The notes beneath the pieces are model-generated. The model was not told the origin of the DNA. It ran no database searches and saw nothing but the letters and a program-made list of their open reading frames with translations. From the IMG/VR virus record IMGVR_UViG_3300037851_000502, positions 1 through 53,620 of that record: a stretch of DNA of 53,620 bases. One strand, written 5' to 3'. This document shows, piece after piece, positions 260 to 27,850 of the stretch; positions within the stretch are counted from its first letter, which is position 1, and every line of letters begins with the position of its first letter. The translations under genes were made by a program, and so were the position numbers. The DNA is from a virus.

Positions 260-994
260 TCAAAAATGGTTCAGTGGTATTGCATCCCTACCGCTGTTAG
301 GTGCTGTATGGCAAATTTCATTAGTGTTCTGCGCGGGGCGGTCTTGCGTGCAGGACGCACGCCGCATTTCATTCCAGATATGCAACCCTAAATCAGAATC
401 AACACAATTCCGCAAAACCTGCCTTTTATTACTTATGTTTGTACCAGATATATCTGTGTCGTAATCTGAAATTTTGTTTTTATCCCGAATATGCTTCGCC
501 CCGAAATCAGCTTGTGCTATATAGAAATTAGCCCAGAACAAATGCCGAGATAAAACCACAGAGGGAGCGACAAGAGGCTCGTAATAGGGCCTCGTGTTTT
601 CCACACAATATAGACCGCTAAAATAGTGCTTTAAAAATATGATTTCTTCATATAACTTCATGTCTGGAAATACAGCAGAGTAGCCCTTTGCACGAAAACC
701 CACATTATACCTATACTGCCCATGCGTAGGGCAAGGTGGACTCGACCAAATAAAATCAAATTCTGAATAATGCTCCTGCAAATAAGCATGAGCATCGCCA
801 ACAATTACAGTATCGGCAGGAAAAAACAATTGATATACCGAAGCTATTTTCGGGTCGAGTTCCACCGCCGTAACATCGCAATCCGACCACAATTTTCGGT
901 TTCCCCCGATACCTGCGTATAGATTCAGGGTTTTTATCTTCGGCGCAGGACGCGCCGTGTCTTGCCCCGCGCCTATAATTTCGGAATTTGCCAT
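260..994 (-). CDS. DNA (cytosine-5) methyltransferase
   Basis: Motif I LNLYAGIGGN, motif IV SSPPCPTH (PC), motif VI CVENT, motif VIII-like SRHLFWANF. The ATG at 994 is preceded by GGTG; the ORF track extends to 1033. Confidence 0.8.
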   Translation of the reverse strand: MANSEIIGAGQDTARPAPKIKTLNLYAGIGGNRKLWSDCDVTAVELDPKIASVYQLFFPADTVIVGDAHAYLQEHYSEFDFIWSSPPCPTHGQYRYNVGFRAKGYSAVFPDMKLYEEIIFLKHYFSGLYCVENTRPYYEPLVAPSVVLSRHLFWANFYIAQADFGAKHIRDKNKISDYDTDISGTNISNKRQVLRNCVDSDLGLHIWNEMRRASCTQDRPAQNTNEICHTAPNSGRDAIPLNHF

Positions 995-1069
995 ATTGCA
1001 CCTAACGTGTGCCCTATGGTGAAGTGTACTCATTTACGAAGTGAACACCATAGGGCTGTTGTGCGAAGT

Positions 1070-1309
1070 TTAACCGCGCCTCCGCTTATTAACTTTCGGC
1101 GCAGGAATAAAATGAATAGTGAGACTGACAAGCTGACCATCAGTCTGCCGCGTCCACGTAAGCGACTCAACGCTGCACAAATTAATTCCCATGTTGTTCG
1201 GAATCACCTCCAACGGAAGCGGAGACTTCTTCGACCTGATAAGCTCCTTGACAGATTTCGTTACCGTTTCCATAGCGTAATCCTTTCTGCGCCGAACTAT
1301 AATATTCAA
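1070..1309 (-). CDS. Hypothetical protein
   Basis: ORF only, with an internal Met (METVTK...) as alternative start. It overlaps other candidate ORFs in this poorly resolved 1034-1914 stretch. Confidence 0.3.
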   Translation of the reverse strand: MNIIVRRRKDYAMETVTKSVKELIRSKKSPLPLEVIPNNMGINLCSVESLTWTRQTDGQLVSLTIHFIPAPKVNKRRRG

Positions 1310-1353
1310 GCGCGGTTAAATTTTGTACAACGGCCCGGCGCACTCGCCAGAAG

Positions 1354-1656
1354 TTACGCCAGATCTTCAACGAAGTGACTATACTCCGTACATTTATTAC
1401 AAGTCTCGGAAGGAAACCAAAAGCACACACCACAATGTGGCGTAATTTTGGGCTGCGCCTGTTGGTGGATGTGCCGTTTGCTACCGCCAGTTTTGCGCGG
1501 CGCTTCCAGCACTCCGTCAACATCAGCATCAGCATGTTCTAAAAGATAGTCTGCCATTTCACCCATATTGCCTCCAGCCGCGCCTATAACATAAAGGCAA
1601 ACGGCATTTACACCAACGTCCCGCAAATTGGGTGCTGTTATGAAAAATGCACCCAA
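1354..1656 (-). CDS. Hypothetical protein with C-terminal CxxC...CxxC zinc-ribbon-like motif
   Basis: ORF ending ...HCGVCFWFPSETCNKCTEY...; start uncertain (MGEMADY... is possible). Confidence 0.3.
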   Translation of the reverse strand: MGAFFITAPNLRDVGVNAVCLYVIGAAGGNMGEMADYLLEHADADVDGVLEAPRKTGGSKRHIHQQAQPKITPHCGVCFWFPSETCNKCTEYSHFVEDLA

Positions 1657-1914: not shown

Positions 1915-2754
1915 CTAATTCTCCATTGTAAGAATATTTCTCATATCTGAAATATCCGCACCAGCGACCTTTAGATACCGCTGTGTTGTCGTAATCGATG
2001 CATGCCCCATCGTCTCCTGCAGCACGCGCAGGTTCGCGCCACGCCTGAGCATGTGGCAGGCATAGGAATGCCGCAGCCGGTGAATATTGTGCCGCCCCTG
2101 GATTCCTGCCCGTGCGCAAGCGTTCTCAAAGATTTTCTGTATGGTCCGCTTCGGATACTGCTCCTGTCCGTATTGAGGCGTAAAAACGAAATCGGCTTGA
2201 CCCTTCCCGGCAATCGTGTCTCGCAATATCGGGTGAACACAATCCGGCAGCATGACCAGACGGTCCTTTTGCCCCTTACCGTCCCGGACGTGAATCACGC
2301 CGCGCTCGAAGCGTATGTCCTGTACCCGGAGCCATTGAATATCACCAAGCCGGAGCCCTCCGTAATAGGCAACCTGCAAAAGTGCCAGGTGCTTCCGGTT
2401 GTTCTCCATTGCAAATATCTTTTTCACTTCGTCAATAGTAAGCGGTTCTGGCAGCTCCTTTTTTTCTTTCATCCTCGGAACGATGTCCAGCGGTATCGGC
2501 TGCTGCAATATGAAATTGCAGTAATACCGGACGGCGTTCGTGTGGAGGTTGATGCTCGCCGGGGCCAGCTTATTCACCCATCGAAGCGCCAGAATCCAAC
2601 CCTGCACGTACTTCACCAGGGAATCGCGCTTGTTTTTCTCGCACCAGGATATAAACCGCTCAACCGATTCGGTATAATGGCGAACCGTAACCGAAGATTT
2701 ATTCTCCACGTTCAGCCGGTTGACCAGGGCGGTGATGGACTCTGATTTTTTCAT
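1915..2754 (-). CDS. int: Tyrosine recombinase / phage integrase family (XerC/D-like, 279 aa)
   Basis: GGLRLGD (Arg I), HRLRHSYACHML (H-x-x-R), GHASITTTQRYLKV (catalytic Tyr). Confidence 0.9.
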   Translation of the reverse strand: MKKSESITALVNRLNVENKSSVTVRHYTESVERFISWCEKNKRDSLVKYVQGWILALRWVNKLAPASINLHTNAVRYYCNFILQQPIPLDIVPRMKEKKELPEPLTIDEVKKIFAMENNRKHLALLQVAYYGGLRLGDIQWLRVQDIRFERGVIHVRDGKGQKDRLVMLPDCVHPILRDTIAGKGQADFVFTPQYGQEQYPKRTIQKIFENACARAGIQGRHNIHRLRHSYACHMLRRGANLRVLQETMGHASITTTQRYLKVAGADISDMRNILTMEN

Positions 2755-2801
2755 AGTATGCCTATAATATACTACGTTTATTTTAAAATGTACATATTAT
2801 T

Positions 2802-4250
2802 TTAAAAAAGTTCGCGCCAATTGCTGACTATCACAGAATCAGCCACGGACTTCTTTTCCTTCAAGGCCTTTAGTATCTTCTCATCGACTGTCCCCCGGGA
2901 GACAAGGTCAACATATGTCACCGATTTTGTCTGCCCTATCCGATGGCAGCGGTCTTCAGACTGGAGCCGTGTTTCAAGGTTATAGTCATTCGAAAAATAA
3001 ACCACCGTCGAAGCTGCCGTGAGCGTTATCCCATACCCCCCCGTCCTTGGATTCCCGACGAAGTAATCGGCACCTCCGTCCTGAAATTTCTTTATTGCCT
3101 CCGTCCGCTCGTCCCCCGTCGTATCCCCGAAATACATCACCACCTTTTCTTTCCCGTATTTTTCAGAAAGCAATTTCGTTATCTGCGCGATATTTTTTCT
3201 ATATGTCGCCCATATTATCACCTTCCCTGGGGCTTCCTCCAATACACTTTCAAGGGCCTCAATCCGAGAACAGGGTATATCCAACAACTCCCCGTCATCC
3301 CCGTCAAGGCACCCGCAGACAAGCTGGTGAAGCCTCAAAAGCCGGACAATAACAAGCGGGGCGGTCACCATCGGGACCCCCGCCAATTCGAGCATGGCTT
3401 CATCCTTGAGCTTCTTATACATCTCTTTCTGTTCCTTGGTCATCGGAACTTCGCATATCTCATAGACCTTCGGCGGTAAATCAAGGCACTCATCTTTCTT
3501 GATAATAAAGCTGAATTTTTTCAGGATATCCGTCAACTCATCAAGATTTTTATACCGCACTACTTTTTTAAAAGTATATGCCCGGTTACCCTGAGCCATC
3601 CGCATCTCCATAAGGTCTGCGAAATATGCCCTGAAAGTATAAAAGCTGCCAAACCCCAAAATATTGTGCCCGAGAAATTGGCATTGAGAATAGATATCTA
3701 ATGGGCTATTTGTTATCGGCGAACCAGTTAAAATACGCCGGTACTTTGCAAACTTGGCGACTTGTATTGCGGCCTTTGTTCGATGGGCTTTCGGATTTTT
3801 CACGTTCGAACTTTCATCGACTACCGCCAAGCACCTCCGGCTGATGATAAATCTCTCCGCAGCTTTCTTCCCGCTCTCGTATGCCAATGCCTCGATATTC
3901 ATCACGAAAAACGTGAGACCGAATTTGCCTTGTTCCGTCATCGCAATATTCTTTTCCGTCTGGCTCTTGCTCTCATCGCCCCAGGAAAACACAAACCGCT
4001 TTATATGGTCAGGCATGTGCGCCGGGATTTCCTTTGTCTCCCAGTTCATATATGAACCCTTATTTGCGAATATCATCACCGCGTCAATTTTCCCATTGTC
4101 ATACAACCATGCCGCGGTGTCGAGAATCACTTTCGTTTTCCCAGTCCCCATCTCCATGAATAAGGCATAGGCTTCCAAGTCTTTGCTGATATCCCATGCC
4201 TTGAATTGATGGTCATACGGTCTTGTCTTGAACGGGTAGGGGTATTTCAT
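2802..4250 (-). CDS. SNF2/Rad54-like helicase
   Basis: Motif I MEMGTGKTKV, motif II AVVDESSNVKN, motif VI DRCHRIGQTKSVTYVDL. Confidence 0.9.
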   Translation of the reverse strand: MKYPYPFKTRPYDHQFKAWDISKDLEAYALFMEMGTGKTKVILDTAAWLYDNGKIDAVMIFANKGSYMNWETKEIPAHMPDHIKRFVFSWGDESKSQTEKNIAMTEQGKFGLTFFVMNIEALAYESGKKAAERFIISRRCLAVVDESSNVKNPKAHRTKAAIQVAKFAKYRRILTGSPITNSPLDIYSQCQFLGHNILGFGSFYTFRAYFADLMEMRMAQGNRAYTFKKVVRYKNLDELTDILKKFSFIIKKDECLDLPPKVYEICEVPMTKEQKEMYKKLKDEAMLELAGVPMVTAPLVIVRLLRLHQLVCGCLDGDDGELLDIPCSRIEALESVLEEAPGKVIIWATYRKNIAQITKLLSEKYGKEKVVMYFGDTTGDERTEAIKKFQDGGADYFVGNPRTGGYGITLTAASTVVYFSNDYNLETRLQSEDRCHRIGQTKSVTYVDLVSRGTVDEKILKALKEKKSVADSVIVSNWRELF

Positions 4251-21249: not shown

Positions 21250-21269
21250 GGGCCGAAGGGATTTTGATA

Positions 21270-24233
21270 ATGCTTGTTGACCGTCATGGAAAAGATATCG
21301 TCGTAGAGAAAGCGGCTGTGATGCAGAACGCGGACCCGGCGCTATGGTTTTCCAGCGACTCAGGGGCGTCGGTCGCCATTGCGGATGTCGAGAAGCAACC
21401 GTATAAATTTTACTGGACGATTTACGCCTGTGCCCGCGTGATAGTTAAAAACATTTCCAGGCTTCCTCGATACCTTACCACTCTCCGCGGTGAATCTAAA
21501 AAGATTACTGAGCATGAAGTCCTGAAACTTTTGGCCAAACCGAACCCGGCGCTTACTCGTACATCTTTTTATGAGCAGATAGGGCTGAGCCTGTTGCTCC
21601 CCGCAGCGCAGTCCTATGGCAAGAACATGAAGGGCGGAGAGTGCTTTATCGTTGGTGAAATGGCTAACGGTAACAAAGCGGATTTCGCTCGGGGCGATAT
21701 CCCGCTCATGCTTTTCTGTTTCAACTCGTCCATGATGTCCCCCGCGTTTTCAGAACAGAAGAAGTGGATAGGGTGGAATTATTCTGTACCGAATACATCC
21801 TCGAAAGCAGAGTTTTACCGGACGACGGAAGTCATTCGGGTTTTCAATCTCAATCCCTATAATATTCTCGAAGGTCTGTCCCCGATTTCATCTGTGCAGT
21901 TGTCCATGGTCCGTGATATCAAGGCGGATTTATGGAATAGCAGGATGTATGACAACGATGCGATTCCCCAGGGTGTTTTGAAATCAGACCAGCAACTTAA
22001 TGAGACAGACGCGCGGGAGATTTCAACACGGTGGTATGAGAGGTATGGTGGGCCCGGGAATACTCGCCGTGTTGCCGTGCTTGGCAAGGGTGTGGAGTTT
22101 CAGAATATCTCTGTCGCGGCGAAGGACATGGAATTCTCGGAGCAAAAAGATAAAGCCATGCGCGAAATCATCAGCGTCATGGGCTTGAATAAAATTGCTC
22201 TCGGGGACTATGAACAGATAAACCGGGCGACGATTGAAATTGGTCGGTTGATGCTTTGGGAAGATACATACCTCCCGATTGACGAACAGATAATGGAGGC
22301 TTTTAATTCCCAGTGGATAAACAATATCGACCCGCGGCAGGTACTCGAACTCAAAGCCGATACTTCAGGGATATCCATCCTAAAAAAGCAGTATGATAAA
22401 CAGGTTGCAGCATCGAAGACCATGTATGATATGGGTGTTCCCGCGGCGACGGCGTTCCGGGTGAATGAGGTACCGATAACTGAGGAAGATATCGCGAATG
22501 CTCCTTGGTTACTCGAAAAGCCTGTCCAATCTTTCGCCCCTGTCCTCCCCCCGGAAGAAGAAAAACCGGAGCCGGAAAAAGCAGTGAAGTCTGGATTCGT
22601 TTATCGGTTGGACAAGGATGAGCGGGACAAGTTTTCGATGTCATATATCGAAAAGGTTCTTGACCCGGGTGAAAAGACCATGGTGTCCCGGCTCATCAAG
22701 TTCTTTATCCGTGAACGGAATGAGATGCAGGACAATGTCGACGAGTGGTTGAAGCGGAACGCCAAATCATTGACGAAGGCCCTGGTGAACCCGGCCGTAT
22801 TTCTTCTTGACATAAGCGAAGAGGCTGAGGACATGATAAAAACGGTGTATCGCCCGCAGGTTATTGAGCAGCTCAAGCGGGAAAAGGTGGAGTTAATCGA
22901 GGAACTGGGGGACGTGGTTGAATGGAATGTCACGGACCCGCTCATCAATTCGTATGTGAATGCCCGCCGGGCGGGGATGAAACGGGTAATCATGAATGAG
23001 ATGAAGACCGTTTCAGACCAGATAAGTGATGCCGTTGAAGCTGGAACTGCGAATAATGCTACGATTGCAGAGATGGCTTCGAGCATAAAGCAGGCAATCG
23101 CGGACGTCGGGGAACAATATAAGAATCAGAGTGTCACAATTGCCCGGACAGAGACAGGAATCATTTCATCGAAGCAGCGATTTGAGACATTCAAGGAAAT
23201 CGGGGCGGAGTATAAGCAGTGGATAAATGCCCATGATGAAAAGGTTCGGGATTCACATCGTGACGGGACCGGGGACGGGGGAAAGATTCTCGGGATAAAT
23301 GATATCTTCCCGAATACCGGATTGATGTACCCGCTCGAAGCAGGCGGGGCAGCGGGAGAGGTGATTAATTGTGTTCTTCCGGGGACAATAGTTTCAGGTT
23401 CATTTGTGGCCGCTCTAAAATCCTTTTATTCTGGTAAGGCCATCGAATTGACCACGAGGAACGGTAACCGGGTTTGCGTGACGGTCAATCACCCCATAAC
23501 CACAAGCAGAGGGTTTATTCCTGCTTACAGCATCAAGAAAGGCGATGACATTGTTTGCCATCGCGGAGATGTTGGCACCTTCTCTTCGAGTTGGTACGCT
23601 GATAAACAGAACGGAGAATCCCGCGTTGAGGATGTCTTCAACACGATTTCGGCGAATGGAACCTCGTGGATTAAAACACCATCCCGCTTCGACTTCGATG
23701 GCGATGGAGAATTTCTGCGACAGCAAATCGATCTTGTGGTAGGGCTTCGTTCCTTGGGAGGCAGGGGTGCTACTCTTGATTCTTCCTTGATGGGTGAAAT
23801 AGAAGCCCCGTTTGTTGAGTTCGGAAATAAGTTCAAGTTCATATCTCCCGATAGGTCCAGTATCATGGGTGCCTTGAGGCCCGGTTTCTTTGGACCCTCT
23901 TCGAGCGGACCAAGCCGCAGAGAGTTTTCTGATAATGGCATCGGGGTCCTTTCTGATGTTCTGCCATTTAAGGAATTCCGCTTCGGAGCTGCCGCGGATA
24001 TGAATATTTCTCGTTATAAGTATTCGACGGATGACGCTTCGGCTTACGAGTCTTTTCTTAGCGACCTGATTTTCACTCATCCCGGAGAGGTATTCATTGA
24101 TGACGTTATCGATGTCAGGACCTTTGATTATTCTGGACATGTTTACGACCTCCAATCGAAAGTAGGATATTTCAACAGCAATAATATACTTTCTCGCAAT
24201 TGTCGATGCACTCTTATTCTCGTATCAAAGTAA
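21270..24233 (+). CDS. Portal protein (HK97-type) fused to MuF/SPP1-gp7-like head morphogenesis domain, interrupted by an intein
   Basis: Portal-like N-terminal ~430 aa (LLAKPNPALTRTSFYEQ..., RWYERYGGPGNTRRVAVLG, MEFSEQKDKAMREIISVMGL). MuF region ARTETGIISS...WINAHDEKVRDSHRDGTG. The C-terminus ...GEVIN/CRCTL completes the NCRC motif only after intein removal. The first ATG is 21270 (track TTG at 21264). Confidence 0.85.
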   Translation: MLVDRHGKDIVVEKAAVMQNADPALWFSSDSGASVAIADVEKQPYKFYWTIYACARVIVKNISRLPRYLTTLRGESKKITEHEVLKLLAKPNPALTRTSFYEQIGLSLLLPAAQSYGKNMKGGECFIVGEMANGNKADFARGDIPLMLFCFNSSMMSPAFSEQKKWIGWNYSVPNTSSKAEFYRTTEVIRVFNLNPYNILEGLSPISSVQLSMVRDIKADLWNSRMYDNDAIPQGVLKSDQQLNETDAREISTRWYERYGGPGNTRRVAVLGKGVEFQNISVAAKDMEFSEQKDKAMREIISVMGLNKIALGDYEQINRATIEIGRLMLWEDTYLPIDEQIMEAFNSQWINNIDPRQVLELKADTSGISILKKQYDKQVAASKTMYDMGVPAATAFRVNEVPITEEDIANAPWLLEKPVQSFAPVLPPEEEKPEPEKAVKSGFVYRLDKDERDKFSMSYIEKVLDPGEKTMVSRLIKFFIRERNEMQDNVDEWLKRNAKSLTKALVNPAVFLLDISEEAEDMIKTVYRPQVIEQLKREKVELIEELGDVVEWNVTDPLINSYVNARRAGMKRVIMNEMKTVSDQISDAVEAGTANNATIAEMASSIKQAIADVGEQYKNQSVTIARTETGIISSKQRFETFKEIGAEYKQWINAHDEKVRDSHRDGTGDGGKILGINDIFPNTGLMYPLEAGGAAGEVINCVLPGTIVSGSFVAALKSFYSGKAIELTTRNGNRVCVTVNHPITTSRGFIPAYSIKKGDDIVCHRGDVGTFSSSWYADKQNGESRVEDVFNTISANGTSWIKTPSRFDFDGDGEFLRQQIDLVVGLRSLGGRGATLDSSLMGEIEAPFVEFGNKFKFISPDRSSIMGALRPGFFGPSSSGPSRREFSDNGIGVLSDVLPFKEFRFGAAADMNISRYKYSTDDASAYESFLSDLIFTHPGEVFIDDVIDVRTFDYSGHVYDLQSKVGYFNSNNILSRNCRCTLILVSK
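23370..24200 (+). mobile_element. Intein (277 aa, Hint fold) inserted in the MuF NCRC motif
   Basis: Block A CVLPGTIV (Cys1), block B VTVNHPIT (TxxH), block F FDYSGHVYDLQS, block G NNILSRN followed by +1 Cys (CRC). The flanking extein residues join to give GEVIN-CRCT. Confidence 0.8.
23415..24140 (-). CDS. Antisense ORF inside the intein: HTH plus PD-(D/E)xK (DUF559/Vsr-like) putative homing endonuclease
   Basis: 241 codons from the ATG at 24140 (246 from the TTG at 24155), with GGAGG 8 nt upstream. HTH-like segment GMSENQVAKKRLVSRSVIRRIL. Nuclease-like segments YELELISELNKRGFYFTHQ, YHKIDLLSQKFSIAIEVEAG and NRVEDILNAGFSVLFIS. It lies wholly within the intein boundaries. Confidence 0.55.
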   Translation of the reverse strand: MSRIIKGPDIDNVINEYLSGMSENQVAKKRLVSRSVIRRILITRNIHIRGSSEAEFLKWQNIRKDPDAIIRKLSAAWSARRGSKETGPQGTHDTGPIGRYELELISELNKRGFYFTHQGRIKSSTPASQGTKPYHKIDLLSQKFSIAIEVEAGWCFNPRGSIRRNRVEDILNAGFSVLFISVPTRREGANISAMANNVIAFLDAVSRNKPSACGYGVIDRHANPVTVPRGQFDGLTRIKGF

Positions 24234-25541: not shown

Positions 25542-26498
25542 ATGAATGAAAAAGACCGGTCAAAAGGAAAACAGGTAGGTCGTGTATTCTCCGGGTTCGC
25601 GCCATCGTCATTGGAGATGAAGCCCGACGAGTGCAAGAAACTCTGTGAAAAGCTGGGCAAAGAATATCTTCCGGGATATGAGGACCGGGTTCTTTCGTAC
25701 ATCACGACAACGGAAACCCCGGACCGGGCGGGGGACATTGTGCGGGCGGCAGGGGCGAATCTCGAAGCATACATGAAAAATCCTCAGGTGATGTATGCCC
25801 ATCAGCATGACCAGTATCCTGTCGGATGTGCATTGAAAATATGGATTGACAAAGCACAAAAGAATATCCCCGCATGGGCGATGTTCCTTGACAATCGGGT
25901 CGATTCCAGCGGGCGGTCGGACCTGGTTTACAAGTTCGCAAAATCCCGGATGATGCCATGTTGCTCAATCGGATTTATGCCTACGAAAACGAATCGGCCA
26001 TCCAGTGCGGAAGAGCGGACCAAACTCGGACTTGGTGACTGGGGCATGGAATATCTTGAATGGGACTACCTTGAATTTTCCCCGTGTTCAATACCGATGA
26101 ATCCCGATGCGATGCAGAACGCTTTGAAGTCCGCGAATTTCAAAGCTGTGTCTTTTGCTCAGGAAGATTTCGACCTCATGGTGAAGATTGCTTTCATGGA
26201 CCAGAATCTCGTGGACATTCTGGCCAACAGCTTAAAGCCTTTGAAGACGGTAAGCATACCAAATACCCAGGAAGAGGTACCTGTTGCAACCACCGAAGTG
26301 GAGGACACTGAAATGAAACAGCTTAACGAAACCATGCTCGAACTCGTGAAGACAATCAATGACCTCGTAACGGCGACGAATGCCATGTCCAAGCGTGTGG
26401 ACGATACTCTTGCGTCACTGAAATCCTCCCCCGGCACCCCCGGCGGCGCGGATGAAGGAAAAGCGCTGGAGGATATGTACTTCCGTATTGGACTGTGA
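25542..26498 (+). CDS. Prohead protease (HK97 S78-like) with C-terminal scaffold-like tail
   Basis: ITTTETPDRAGDIVRAAGANLEAYMKNPQVMYAHQ. The ATG at 25542 is preceded by AAGGAGA (track start 25452). The C-terminus is helical and acidic. Confidence 0.8.
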   Translation: MNEKDRSKGKQVGRVFSGFAPSSLEMKPDECKKLCEKLGKEYLPGYEDRVLSYITTTETPDRAGDIVRAAGANLEAYMKNPQVMYAHQHDQYPVGCALKIWIDKAQKNIPAWAMFLDNRVDSSGRSDLVYKFAKSRMMPCCSIGFMPTKTNRPSSAEERTKLGLGDWGMEYLEWDYLEFSPCSIPMNPDAMQNALKSANFKAVSFAQEDFDLMVKIAFMDQNLVDILANSLKPLKTVSIPNTQEEVPVATTEVEDTEMKQLNETMLELVKTINDLVTATNAMSKRVDDTLASLKSSPGTPGGADEGKALEDMYFRIGL

Positions 26499-26542
26499 CA
26501 GATAAATAAGAAGAGCCCAACGAAATCTGAAAGGATTTTAAA

Positions 26543-27850
26543 ATGGAACTGAATCTCGAACAACTGGAAGGCAAGCTCAAGGAATACAAGGGCTCCATCC
26601 AGACGGAAATTGACAATGTGAAGAAATCTGTGGACGGATTCGACGGCAAGGCAAAAGCCGCAGTCGAACCGCTCCAGAAAGACCTGTCGGACGTCCAGAA
26701 AACGCTGAACTCCATCCAGGAGCAGCTCAAAGTCGTGCAGGCCCAGCACGTCCCCGGCCTCAAGGACGAAGCAGCGAAAAAAGGTTTTGACCTCGGCGCT
26801 TTCGTTGGCGGAATCATGCGGGCCCGGCTCGGAATTTCCGACCCGTGGAAGTTCGCTGGACATGAAAAAGAGATGTGCGAACAGTCCATGAAGGTCCGTG
26901 ACGCCAGCAACTACGCCAGCGATGGAACTGCCGGCGGATACTTGGTCCCCGATGAGGCCCTTGCCCCCGTCGTGGACACCACCCTTGCCGAAATGCCCAT
27001 CATGGGTCTTGGCCCGACAGTCATTCGCGGTCTGGTCGGCCCCCTGCCGATTCCGCGGAAGACCGCCCGTTCGACCGGGTACATGGTCGGAGAGAATACC
27101 GCTCCCGCCCGCTCTGGTGCGACGTATGGGCTCACCACCCTTTCCCCGCACAAAATCGGAGCACAGACCGTGCAGAGCAATCGCCTGGCTTACCAGAGCC
27201 GCGGCGTGAGCGACCAGATAATCCGTCAGGATATCACGGATGCAATCGCCCTTAAGCTGGAATCCCAGCTTATCGACGGCGATGGCACCGGGTACAATCT
27301 GAAGGGTCTCGTGGCCCATACCGGTTTCACGTCAAGCGGCGTGACGGTTTCCGGGGCACGTTTCCGCGTGAAGGATGCAAGCTCGATGATTGCCGCAATC
27401 GAAGCGGCGGACGAGCTTCGCGCCGGCGGGCGGTACGGTTTCCTCATGCGCCCGCGCGTGAAGTGGGGCCTGAAGAAAGAGCGTGCGGAAATGTATTCCG
27501 GCCAGTCCGCAGACAACGGCGTTCCGATTATCGTCAATGCGCCCATCATGACTGATGACCAGCTTGCGGCCGCTCTCGGGTACAAGGTCGCGTCGACCTC
27601 TCTCATCGATTTCACATCGGCGACGCTGTCTCCGGTGTACTTCGGCAACTGGGCACAGCTCTACGTCGGTATCTGGAGGGACTTCTGGATAAAGGCGTCG
27701 GATGTGGCAGTGGACTCAAGCGGAAACAGCATGATGACCCAGGACAGCACGCTCATCGTCGCTTTCCAAGAAGTCGATTGCGCGGTTATCCGTGAAACGG
27801 CGTTCACCAAGGTCACCGGCGCGGACAGCACGGAAGCCAACTGGTCGTAA
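26543..27850 (+). CDS. Major capsid protein (HK97 fold)
   Basis: Follows the protease; N-terminal coiled-coil delta-like region; GGYLVPDE motif; 435 aa. Confidence 0.85.
   Translation: MELNLEQLEGKLKEYKGSIQTEIDNVKKSVDGFDGKAKAAVEPLQKDLSDVQKTLNSIQEQLKVVQAQHVPGLKDEAAKKGFDLGAFVGGIMRARLGISDPWKFAGHEKEMCEQSMKVRDASNYASDGTAGGYLVPDEALAPVVDTTLAEMPIMGLGPTVIRGLVGPLPIPRKTARSTGYMVGENTAPARSGATYGLTTLSPHKIGAQTVQSNRLAYQSRGVSDQIIRQDITDAIALKLESQLIDGDGTGYNLKGLVAHTGFTSSGVTVSGARFRVKDASSMIAAIEAADELRAGGRYGFLMRPRVKWGLKKERAEMYSGQSADNGVPIIVNAPIMTDDQLAAALGYKVASTSLIDFTSATLSPVYFGNWAQLYVGIWRDFWIKASDVAVDSSGNSMMTQDSTLIVAFQEVDCAVIRETAFTKVTGADSTEANWS

Follow-up and report, generated by a model that had tools for sequence, protein, structure and literature searches.

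A portal-MuF intein with a predicted homing endonuclease encoded in phase on its opposite strand

The window analysed here is a stretch of 53,620 nucleotides of viral DNA (IMG/VR record IMGVR_UViG_3300037851_000502, positions 1 to 53,620), and the element in question is an intein inside its portal-MuF gene, which has a TTG start 15 nucleotides past the end of the terminase gene. On the strand opposite to the intein, and exactly in phase with its codons (forward codon position 1 being antisense position 3), lies a second open reading frame (ORF) that is predicted to encode a helix-turn-helix (HTH) nuclease. The two very probably form one system, in which the intein splices in cis and has its homing endonuclease encoded on the antisense strand. 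The features of the locus are collected in Table 1.

Table 1. Features of the portal-MuF locus, with positions in the window.
Feature	Positions	Strand	Remarks
Portal-MuF precursor ORF, 989 amino acids	21264..24233	+	portal, MuF, intein, 10-amino-acid C-extein
N-extein	21264..23369	+	ends ...AGEVIN
Class-1 intein, 277 amino acids (splicing predicted)	23370..24200	+	Cys1...Arg276-Asn277
Hint N-terminal splicing region, amino acids 1-65	23370..23564	+	block A Cys1; block B
Cys1, TGT	23370-23372	+	
Block B, T38-V-N-H41 (TVNH)	23481-23492	+	
Central 170 amino acids of the intein frame	23565..24074	+	linker without recognisable domain
Hint C-terminal splicing region, amino acids 236-277	24075..24200	+	block F GHVYDL; block G ...SRN
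Block-F His257, CAT	24138-24140	+	
Asn277, AAT	24198-24200	+	
C-extein CRCTLILVSK and stop	24201..24233	+	restores the NCRC end of MuF
Cys+1, TGT	24201-24203	+	predicted splice nucleophile; then RCTLILVSK, stop
Putative antisense homing-endonuclease ORF, 241 amino acids and TAG	23415..24140	-	wholly within the intein
Shine-Dalgarno-like GGAGG	24149..24153	-	8 nucleotides upstream of antisense ATG; reverse complement of block-F Asp-Leu GAC CTC
Antisense ATG	24140-24138	-	reverse complement of block-F His257 CAT
Predicted resolvase-type HTH domain, antisense amino acids 10-43	24012..24113	-	
Predicted Vsr/DUF559-like (PD-(D/E)xK-fold) nuclease core, antisense amino acids 99-207	23520..23846	-	
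Invariant E101	23838-23840	-	
Invariant D138	23727-23729	-	
Invariant E149	23694-23696	-	
Antisense TAG	23417-23415	-	reverse complement of Leu CTA in ALKSFY, 15 codons after Cys1
Weak sigma-70-like promoter candidate, TTGATA-18-GACAAT, 9/12	24199..24228	-	upstream of the antisense ORF; spans the intein/C-extein junction

The intein and its insertion site

The precursor carries a portal domain at amino acids 52-392 (Pfam PF04860, E 3e-43), also matches the portal family phrog_2662 (E 4.5e-57), and has a Phage_Mu_F domain (Pfam PF04233) at amino acids 582-703. Similar portal-MuF fusions are labelled simply 'portal protein' in some phage records, for example those of the Bacillus phages Flasso and Silence. 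An earlier reading of the DNA, here called the original prediction, had placed an intein at 23370-24200 within the NCRC motif that ends MuF domains; these coordinates proved to be exact, and the intein is in frame within the 989-residue ORF. When the flanks are joined (GEVIN-CRCTLILVSK) the NCRC signature is restored, as had been proposed, and the reconstructed intein-less site of the window reads GAGGTGATTAAT-TGTCGATGC, where the hyphen, as in the sites given below, marks the insertion point. With the intein removed in silico, the Phage_Mu_F match scored 51.3 bits instead of 36.7, and its coverage of the profile was completed, from positions 2-99 to 2-112 of 112. The original prediction had also suggested an alignment with intein-less MuF homologues, and such proteins from other phages do align in one piece across the splice junction.

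The Hint blocks A, B, F and G were all located (Cys1, TVNH, GHVYDL, SRN), as was the cysteine following the intein, all of which had been called from the start. Cys1 is invariant in all ten members of the intein family compared, and T38, N40, H41 and N277 are also invariant across the family. The penultimate residue is Arg276 and not the usual His, a peculiarity that had been pointed out and is real; among the family members this position is S, R or H. A penultimate His is common in inteins and not obligatory; the DnaE inteins, for instance, are active and have ...ASN at their end. The Hint and intein profile searches that had been suggested were positive: the Intein_splicing profile PF14890 matches the window with an E value of 3.2e-7, at 30.7 bits and thus below the curated cut-off of 35.8 bits, and all ten family members are matched as well (the best with E 1.2e-10). 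A profile of the family finds solved inteins, with Mja KlbA (2jmz) at E 2.3e-11 followed by PI-PkoII, Pho RadA, Mtu RecA and DnaB. These matches are confined to the two splicing halves (profile positions 9-63 and 235-263), the second of them being matched by the Mja KlbA intein. The window intein also matches phrog_15127 (E 8e-25), and its sole homologue in the protein databases is an unrelated methyltransferase, designated P0001, which contains a full-length homologous intein (E 3e-28).

Between the two halves, no in-frame endonuclease domain was found by Pfam, NCBIfam, family or structure profile matches, and no Pfam or PDB match covers the central region of the forward frame. It had been remarked that 277 amino acids are too many for a mini-intein and that no endonuclease is visible in frame. 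Both statements are correct, and the probable reason why the endonuclease was missed is that it is encoded antisense; the intein is large without a visible endonuclease because the latter would lie on the opposite strand.

The reading frame on the opposite strand

The start signals of the antisense ORF coincide with one of the splicing blocks. In 15 of 15 loci a Shine-Dalgarno-like motif and the start codon lie within block F, whose His codon is CAT in 14 of them, giving an antisense ATG, and CAC in the remaining one, giving GTG. The Leu of the (D/N)-L pair is encoded by CTC in 13 of the 15 loci, which yields GAGG or GAGA 7-8 nucleotides before the antisense start, and from background codon usage the joint chance is about 1e-9. 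It therefore appears that block F doubles as the ribosome-binding site of the endonuclease. The locus with the CAC codon (L020) has the resulting GTG used as a start by the gene caller; in another locus (L017) the Leu codon is CTA, which puts a TAG just upstream of the antisense ATG, and the Shine-Dalgarno-like motif is weaker. At about 23628-23645 the coding is near-palindromic: these 18 bases give V-E-D-V-F-N in the forward frame and V-E-D-I-L-N in the antisense one.

The antisense protein is predicted to combine an HTH with a nuclease of the Vsr/DUF559 type and to be a relative of I-Bth0305I, an EDxHD homing endonuclease. Single-sequence searches with the window ORF gave nothing significant in Pfam, NCBIfam, the PDB (by phmmer) or a word-indexed collection of 5.8 billion proteins, so that a family profile was needed to detect its relatives; against a profile from which it had been left out, the window protein, which has no Pfam match alone, scores 71 bits. 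The profile of ten antisense proteins matches the DUF559-like endonuclease 3hrl (E 2.8e-5) and I-Bth0305I (3r3p, E 1.1e-4) in the PDB, and weakly E. coli Vsr (1cw0, E 0.54), while its N-terminus matches the HTHs of resolvases and transposases (gamma-delta resolvase, Sleeping Beauty). Among the ten members, Pfam recognises HTH_7, HTH_23 and MTES_1575 in seven each and DUF559 in three. The AlphaFold2 model of the window protein, made with 22 metagenomic relatives, has a mean predicted local distance difference test score (pLDDT) of 80, and shows a three-helix HTH at amino acids 10-43 (pLDDT about 95) and an alpha-beta-beta-beta-alpha-beta-alpha core at amino acids 99-207.

All 23 antisense sequences compared share the residues E101, D138 and E149, and D138 aligns with the catalytic D196 of I-Bth0305I (Vsr D51), mutated to D196A in 3r3p. 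The motif of the family reads YNxDF...VAVEVFGGxWH. Its W-H pair is present in most metagenomic members, and several phage members are without it. The second Asp of I-Bth0305I (NKDKRK; equivalent to Vsr D97) aligns with a position that is not conserved, Arg163 in the window, with a conserved R166 nearby.

Relatives, selection and mobility

We searched 50,697 phage records by tblastn with the window antisense ORF and found it in 45 of them, 37 of which cover at least 80% of the ORF. The matches come from phages of Pseudomonas, Salmonella, E. coli, Vibrio, Aggregatibacter, Cronobacter, Idiomarina, Gordonia and Acinetobacter. All nine records that were opened (Pseudomonas BR313c, E. coli Snoke, Gordonia Vivi2, Cronobacter ES2, Idiomarinaceae 1N2-2, Vibrio H2, Vibrio PvVp04, Aaphi23 and Salmonella LP31) have it antisense to a MuF or head-morphogenesis gene, and the MuF gene of Snoke was already annotated as intein-containing. 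A search of a representative library of 1.84 billion proteins with the family profile gave 1,908 clusters (50% identity) at E <=1e-30, and the six metagenome matches whose contigs were read are, without exception, antisense-in-MuF-intein ORFs called as genes. On these metagenome contigs (L011, L012, L013, L019, L020 and L022) the MuF gene is mostly truncated by a nearby contig end. One copy of the family is named 'very-short-patch-repair endonuclease' in a JGI record. In Salmonella phage vB_StyS-sam (NC_073177.1; L014) the antisense gene is partly and unknowingly annotated: the RefSeq coding sequence 903-1304 (-), a 133-residue 'hypothetical protein', is part of a 250-residue endonuclease ORF, and RefSeq also has a second small ORF inside the intein, 1232-1480 (+).

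About 20 related loci were translated, and every one has an in-phase antisense frame that begins with a start codon at the block-F His and stays open. Detailed analysis of 13 loci showed both frames in phase and without stops in each of them (13/13), and no split-intein version of the family, with a broken intein frame, was seen among the loci read. With the two frames in this phase, a stop on one strand is a TTA, CTA or TCA codon on the other. In the window gene such codons make up 17 of 712 in the extein (2.4%) and 0 of 241 in the overlap (p 0.0067); pooled over ten loci, the counts are 116 of 4043 and 0 of 2620 (p 3.5e-26). A codon-usage model puts the joint chance of an open intein frame at about 1e-43 and that of an open antisense frame at about 1e-60.

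The selection acting on the two strands was measured as omega on ungapped pairs of Guernseyvirinae, so that no alignment bias is involved. In the central part of the intein (amino acids 71-235) selection is purifying for the antisense frame, with omega 0.04-0.16, and close to neutral for the forward frame, with omega 0.5-2.6, and in the two Hint regions the relation is turned around: 0.7-1.3 antisense and 0.11-0.40 forward in the N-terminal one, about 0.2-1.9 antisense and 0.02-0.23 forward in the C-terminal one. Moderately diverged pairs keep a higher antisense identity in the central region, even when the forward proteins are used for the alignment. With leave-one-out profiles, the central DNA of the window gave 71.0 bits (E 4.6e-24) in the antisense frame as compared to 32.4 bits in the forward frame, and three other targets had the same roughly two-fold ratio of bits. 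Read as reverse complements, the R..ILN.G helix and the VAVEV strand of the nuclease give the forward 'motifs' EDVF and DFHGD, respectively. Each strand is thus selected in its own segment; the central 170 amino acids of the intein are a translated shadow of the endonuclease gene, and the C-terminal tail of the endonuclease, about 55 amino acids, is a shadow of the Hint N-domain.

It was also possible to observe signs of mobility. Between Snoke (Kagunavirus) and LP31 (Jerseyvirus) the intein DNA is 90-98% identical and the flanking extein 54-81%, with a short flank of high identity. Most Guernseyvirinae are without the intein, and fEg-Eco19 is without it at 97% extein identity. These observations point to a recent horizontal transfer of the intein element between phage genera, as expected for homing. 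Two loci show the family in other places. On a Logan contig from SRR14194068 (L001) the P0001 gene at 2493-3923 (+), which encodes a class-I methyltransferase and adjoins transketolase-like genes, has the antisense ORF at 3030-3851 (-); this ORF shares motifs and the C-terminal RIKGF with the one in the window, and the locus is a switch of extein to a non-structural, possibly cellular, host gene. In Escherichia phage fEg-Eco06 (PQ141284.1, 8843-11125; L015) the MuF gene at 52-1989 contains a 298-residue intein of the same family at another MuF site, ...SRTSTT-C...IVKN-CRARDG..., upstream of the usual HPN-CRS site. This intein also carries an in-phase antisense HTH-nuclease ORF, and it looks like a switch of site within one host protein.

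Interpretation and related systems

With the architecture that we hold to be very probable, the precursor would be translated straight through the 277-residue class-1 intein, and the Hint halves (about amino acids 1-65 and 236-277) would be bridged by some 170 residues of largely unconstrained linker. By the predicted Cys1/Asn277/Cys+1 pathway the intein would be excised and ...GEVIN ligated to CRCTLILVSK, which would restore the end of the MuF domain; splicing is here predicted from the residues present. The minus strand would encode the 241-residue HTH-nuclease, with its ribosome-binding site and start inside block F and its stop in the block-A region. By analogy with other homing endonucleases, this protein may cut intein-less MuF alleles at or near N-CRC during co-infection, and recombinational repair would then copy the intein into the cut allele; its cleavage activity and target site are predicted by the same analogy.

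Several observations weigh against this architecture. The AlphaFold2 model of the forward intein, which was made from an alignment of only two sequences, has a mean pLDDT of 33 and is of low confidence throughout; that the Hint parts reach about 55 and the linker about 25 (21-29 in the centre) fits the architecture, and with such an alignment it is not decisive. The ORF would have to be transcribed and translated antisense inside a late structural operon, for which the promoter candidates are weak: a scan found four sites, with 1.6 expected in shuffles, and near the antisense ORF there is only the 9/12 match. Foldseek gave no match of the antisense model in the PDB at E <=0.001, the top matches, which fall short of this threshold, being PD-(D/E)xK restriction enzymes (best PvuRts1I, E 0.015), which is suggestive only. 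The codon usage of the central region did not separate the two frames and does not favour the antisense one, with a log-likelihood ratio of +0.054 per codon antisense as compared to +0.145 forward. In pairs of the window and a relative (about 25% identity) the frame that seems more conserved follows the frame used for the alignment, and frame-dependent pairwise identity was replaced by leave-one-out profiles and ungapped close pairs. Finally, an in-phase ORF of 386 amino acids at 26159..27319 (-) lies opposite the major capsid gene (26543..27850), which has just two TTA, CTA or TCA codons in 435. It is probably a chance shadow ORF, and because of it the extein of the portal-MuF gene itself was used as the control in the codon counts. 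Since chance in-phase ORFs arise there, an open antisense frame by itself is weak evidence in the window, and long antisense ORFs in the window need evidence from homology before they are called genes.

The copy in the window is also the one that departs most from its family, which raises the possibility that it is a decaying relic, so that the intein still splices while the endonuclease is inactive and the frame is open only because the decay is recent. The near-invariant YN, present in 22 of 23 other sequences, is replaced by HK (Y135H, N136K), and W154-C155 stands in the place of W-H, so that the general-base His of I-Bth0305I (H213) and Vsr (H69), which most members have, is absent. The window protein has furthermore E151 and A152 at the near-invariant F and G positions and an insertion before the D138 strand, and its 71 bits against the family profile are the lowest of the four tested (the others 120-193); chance antisense ORFs of such a length occur in the window, as described above. 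These points, too, weigh against a working endonuclease, and the copy may be inactive or decaying. On the other hand, the ORF is intact over 241 codons, when 2.4% of the codons in the extein of the same gene are stop complements; E101, D138 and E149 are retained, and the HTH is modelled with a pLDDT of about 95. Other intact members, among them Snoke, which has WA, and Aaphi23, are also without W-H, so the His may be dispensable in this branch. We therefore consider a relic possible and somewhat improbable.

Two other explanations were rejected. It is conceivable that the central 170 amino acids form a functional in-frame domain, a novel endonuclease or DNA-recognition module, and that the antisense ORF is a by-product of codon composition. 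The forward frame has conserved motifs (EDVF, DFHGD...GEVxVV) besides its coding-like codon usage, but VAVEV/DFHGD and R..ILN.G/EDVF are exact reverse-complement shadows of nuclease motifs, and the central forward omega is about 1 as compared to the strongly constrained antisense frame. Moreover, the profiles give about twice the bits antisense, the forward region is without Pfam or PDB match, and it is in the antisense product that HTH and nuclease domains can be recognised and that the model is confident, which makes this explanation highly improbable. The Hint domain could also be a cleavage-only module, of the bacterial intein-like or toxin-releasing kind, in a MuF protein resembling polymorphic toxins, as the penultimate Arg and the PF14890 score under the curated cut-off might suggest. 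The original prediction had preferred a true splicing intein to a toxin-releasing Hint domain, and the sequence supports that preference and the assignment of 23370-24200 to a class-1 intein of the splicing type. We favour splicing because Cys1, Asn277 and Cys+1 are all present, because only ten residues follow and these complete the MuF profile, because the same family occupies the same N-C(R/K)(C/S) MuF site in many phages, and because it also occurs in the unrelated methyltransferase and at the second MuF site. The insertion is precise, at one conserved site with intein-free alleles among close relatives, and phages that are viable in culture have members with S, R or H as the penultimate residue in their essential head genes. 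A cleavage-only module is, if anything, harder still to credit.

An antisense endonuclease in an intein at this MuF site has already been described, as a rare arrangement, in a 2025 preprint by Gosselin, Arsenault and Gogarten (bioRxiv 10.1101/2025.01.02.630785), and the window is a new and distant member. The preprint reports contiguous inteins with anti-sense VSR-like homing endonucleases in MuF-like minor capsid proteins of actinophages, with an HHpred match of the antisense endonuclease to 3R3P, and its table lists gp14 of Gordonia phage Vivi2 ('minor capsid, MuF-like ... VSR -1 ORF', site HEVIN-CRCT, intein cluster 60). The same gene (locus L004 here) is a direct tblastn match of the window antisense ORF (E 7e-5). 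Both have a MuF host (IPR006528) and the same site, GEVIN-CRCT in the window, and in both the intein is class-1 and contiguous, with an antisense endonuclease ORF that has a distant match to 3R3P. The window differs in its portal-MuF fusion and in belonging to a phage with 47-48% GC that is not an actinophage. As compared to Vivi2, the protein identity is about 21-23% in either frame, the antisense protein has one HTH unit instead of two, and the W-H pair is lacking. A further difference from these inteins is that the antisense ORF of the window starts in block F, runs through block B and ends 15 codons after Cys1.

The 'fractured genes' of Dassa et al. 2009 (PMC2677866) have a Vsr-like endonuclease gene between the halves of a split intein, and according to that study no Vsr-like endonuclease was known inside an intein. 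Like the window, they combine a phage intein with a Vsr-like gene that has translation signals of its own and occupies the point where intein endonucleases are canonically inserted. In the fractured genes, however, the endonuclease is drawn as a separate gene between the two parts of the host gene, whose orientation is unchanged; its stop and start codons split the host gene into two genes that are joined by trans-splicing, whereas in the window the endonuclease frame is antisense and in phase, the intein frame is open and contiguous within a single 989-residue ORF, and splicing would be in cis. I-Bth0305I, the prototype of the EDxHD homing endonucleases, has its gene within a group I intron of recA, and 3R3P is its catalytic domain (Taylor et al. 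2011, PMC3239194). It resembles the antisense family in having an N-terminal HTH-type DNA-binding region and a C-terminal nuclease of the Vsr fold, and the aligned core, E...(Y/W)NxD...(V/I)A(V/I)E(V)xGxxWH...G(Y/W)xVL, puts D138 at D196 and the family W-H at H213. The match is distant, the family has no conserved residue in the place of the last Asp of EDxHD, and the window is also without the His. An older parallel is the cyanobacterial dnaX intein, for which an antisense or out-of-frame endonuclease of the LAGLIDADG family has been described (Gorbalenya 1998, as cited in later work). There the endonuclease frame is under purifying selection, and selection on the intein frame is relaxed where the two overlap (Phillips et al., bioRxiv 10.64898/2026.09.14.751524). 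The dnaX intein is thus like the window in that the endonuclease is in another frame than that of the intein, with selection partitioned by frame, and unlike it in endonuclease family, in host gene and in having cellular and not phage hosts.

What is added here is that MuF-site inteins with an antisense Vsr-like endonuclease extend beyond the actinophages, to phages of Proteobacteria and to metagenomes, that the antisense ORF overlaps the splicing blocks and has its start signals embedded in block F, that selection and stop avoidance can be followed frame by frame with statistics for both strands, and that there are signs that the copy in the window may be degenerating. Gene callers and annotators miss or mislabel such antisense-in-intein ORFs. 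Snoke, Aaphi23 and Vivi2 are cultured and tractable phages in which antisense expression and homing can be studied.

We lean, by a small amount, towards the view that the element is a single dual-coding unit, ancient in origin and very wide in distribution, and not an occasional accident of endonuclease-gene invasion. This view takes three things jointly: that the GAGG-N7/8-ATG start is hard-wired in block F, where neither gene would be free to change; that about 240-350 codons are stop-free on both strands, with the selection spatially partitioned; and that the unit is found in phages of Proteobacteria, in at least 1,900 metagenome clusters (50% identity), at a second MuF site and in a methyltransferase. 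If this is true, few of the conserved gene overlaps in full antisense that are known from phages would be as long, and the element would provide a natural system for how two genes share one segment of DNA.

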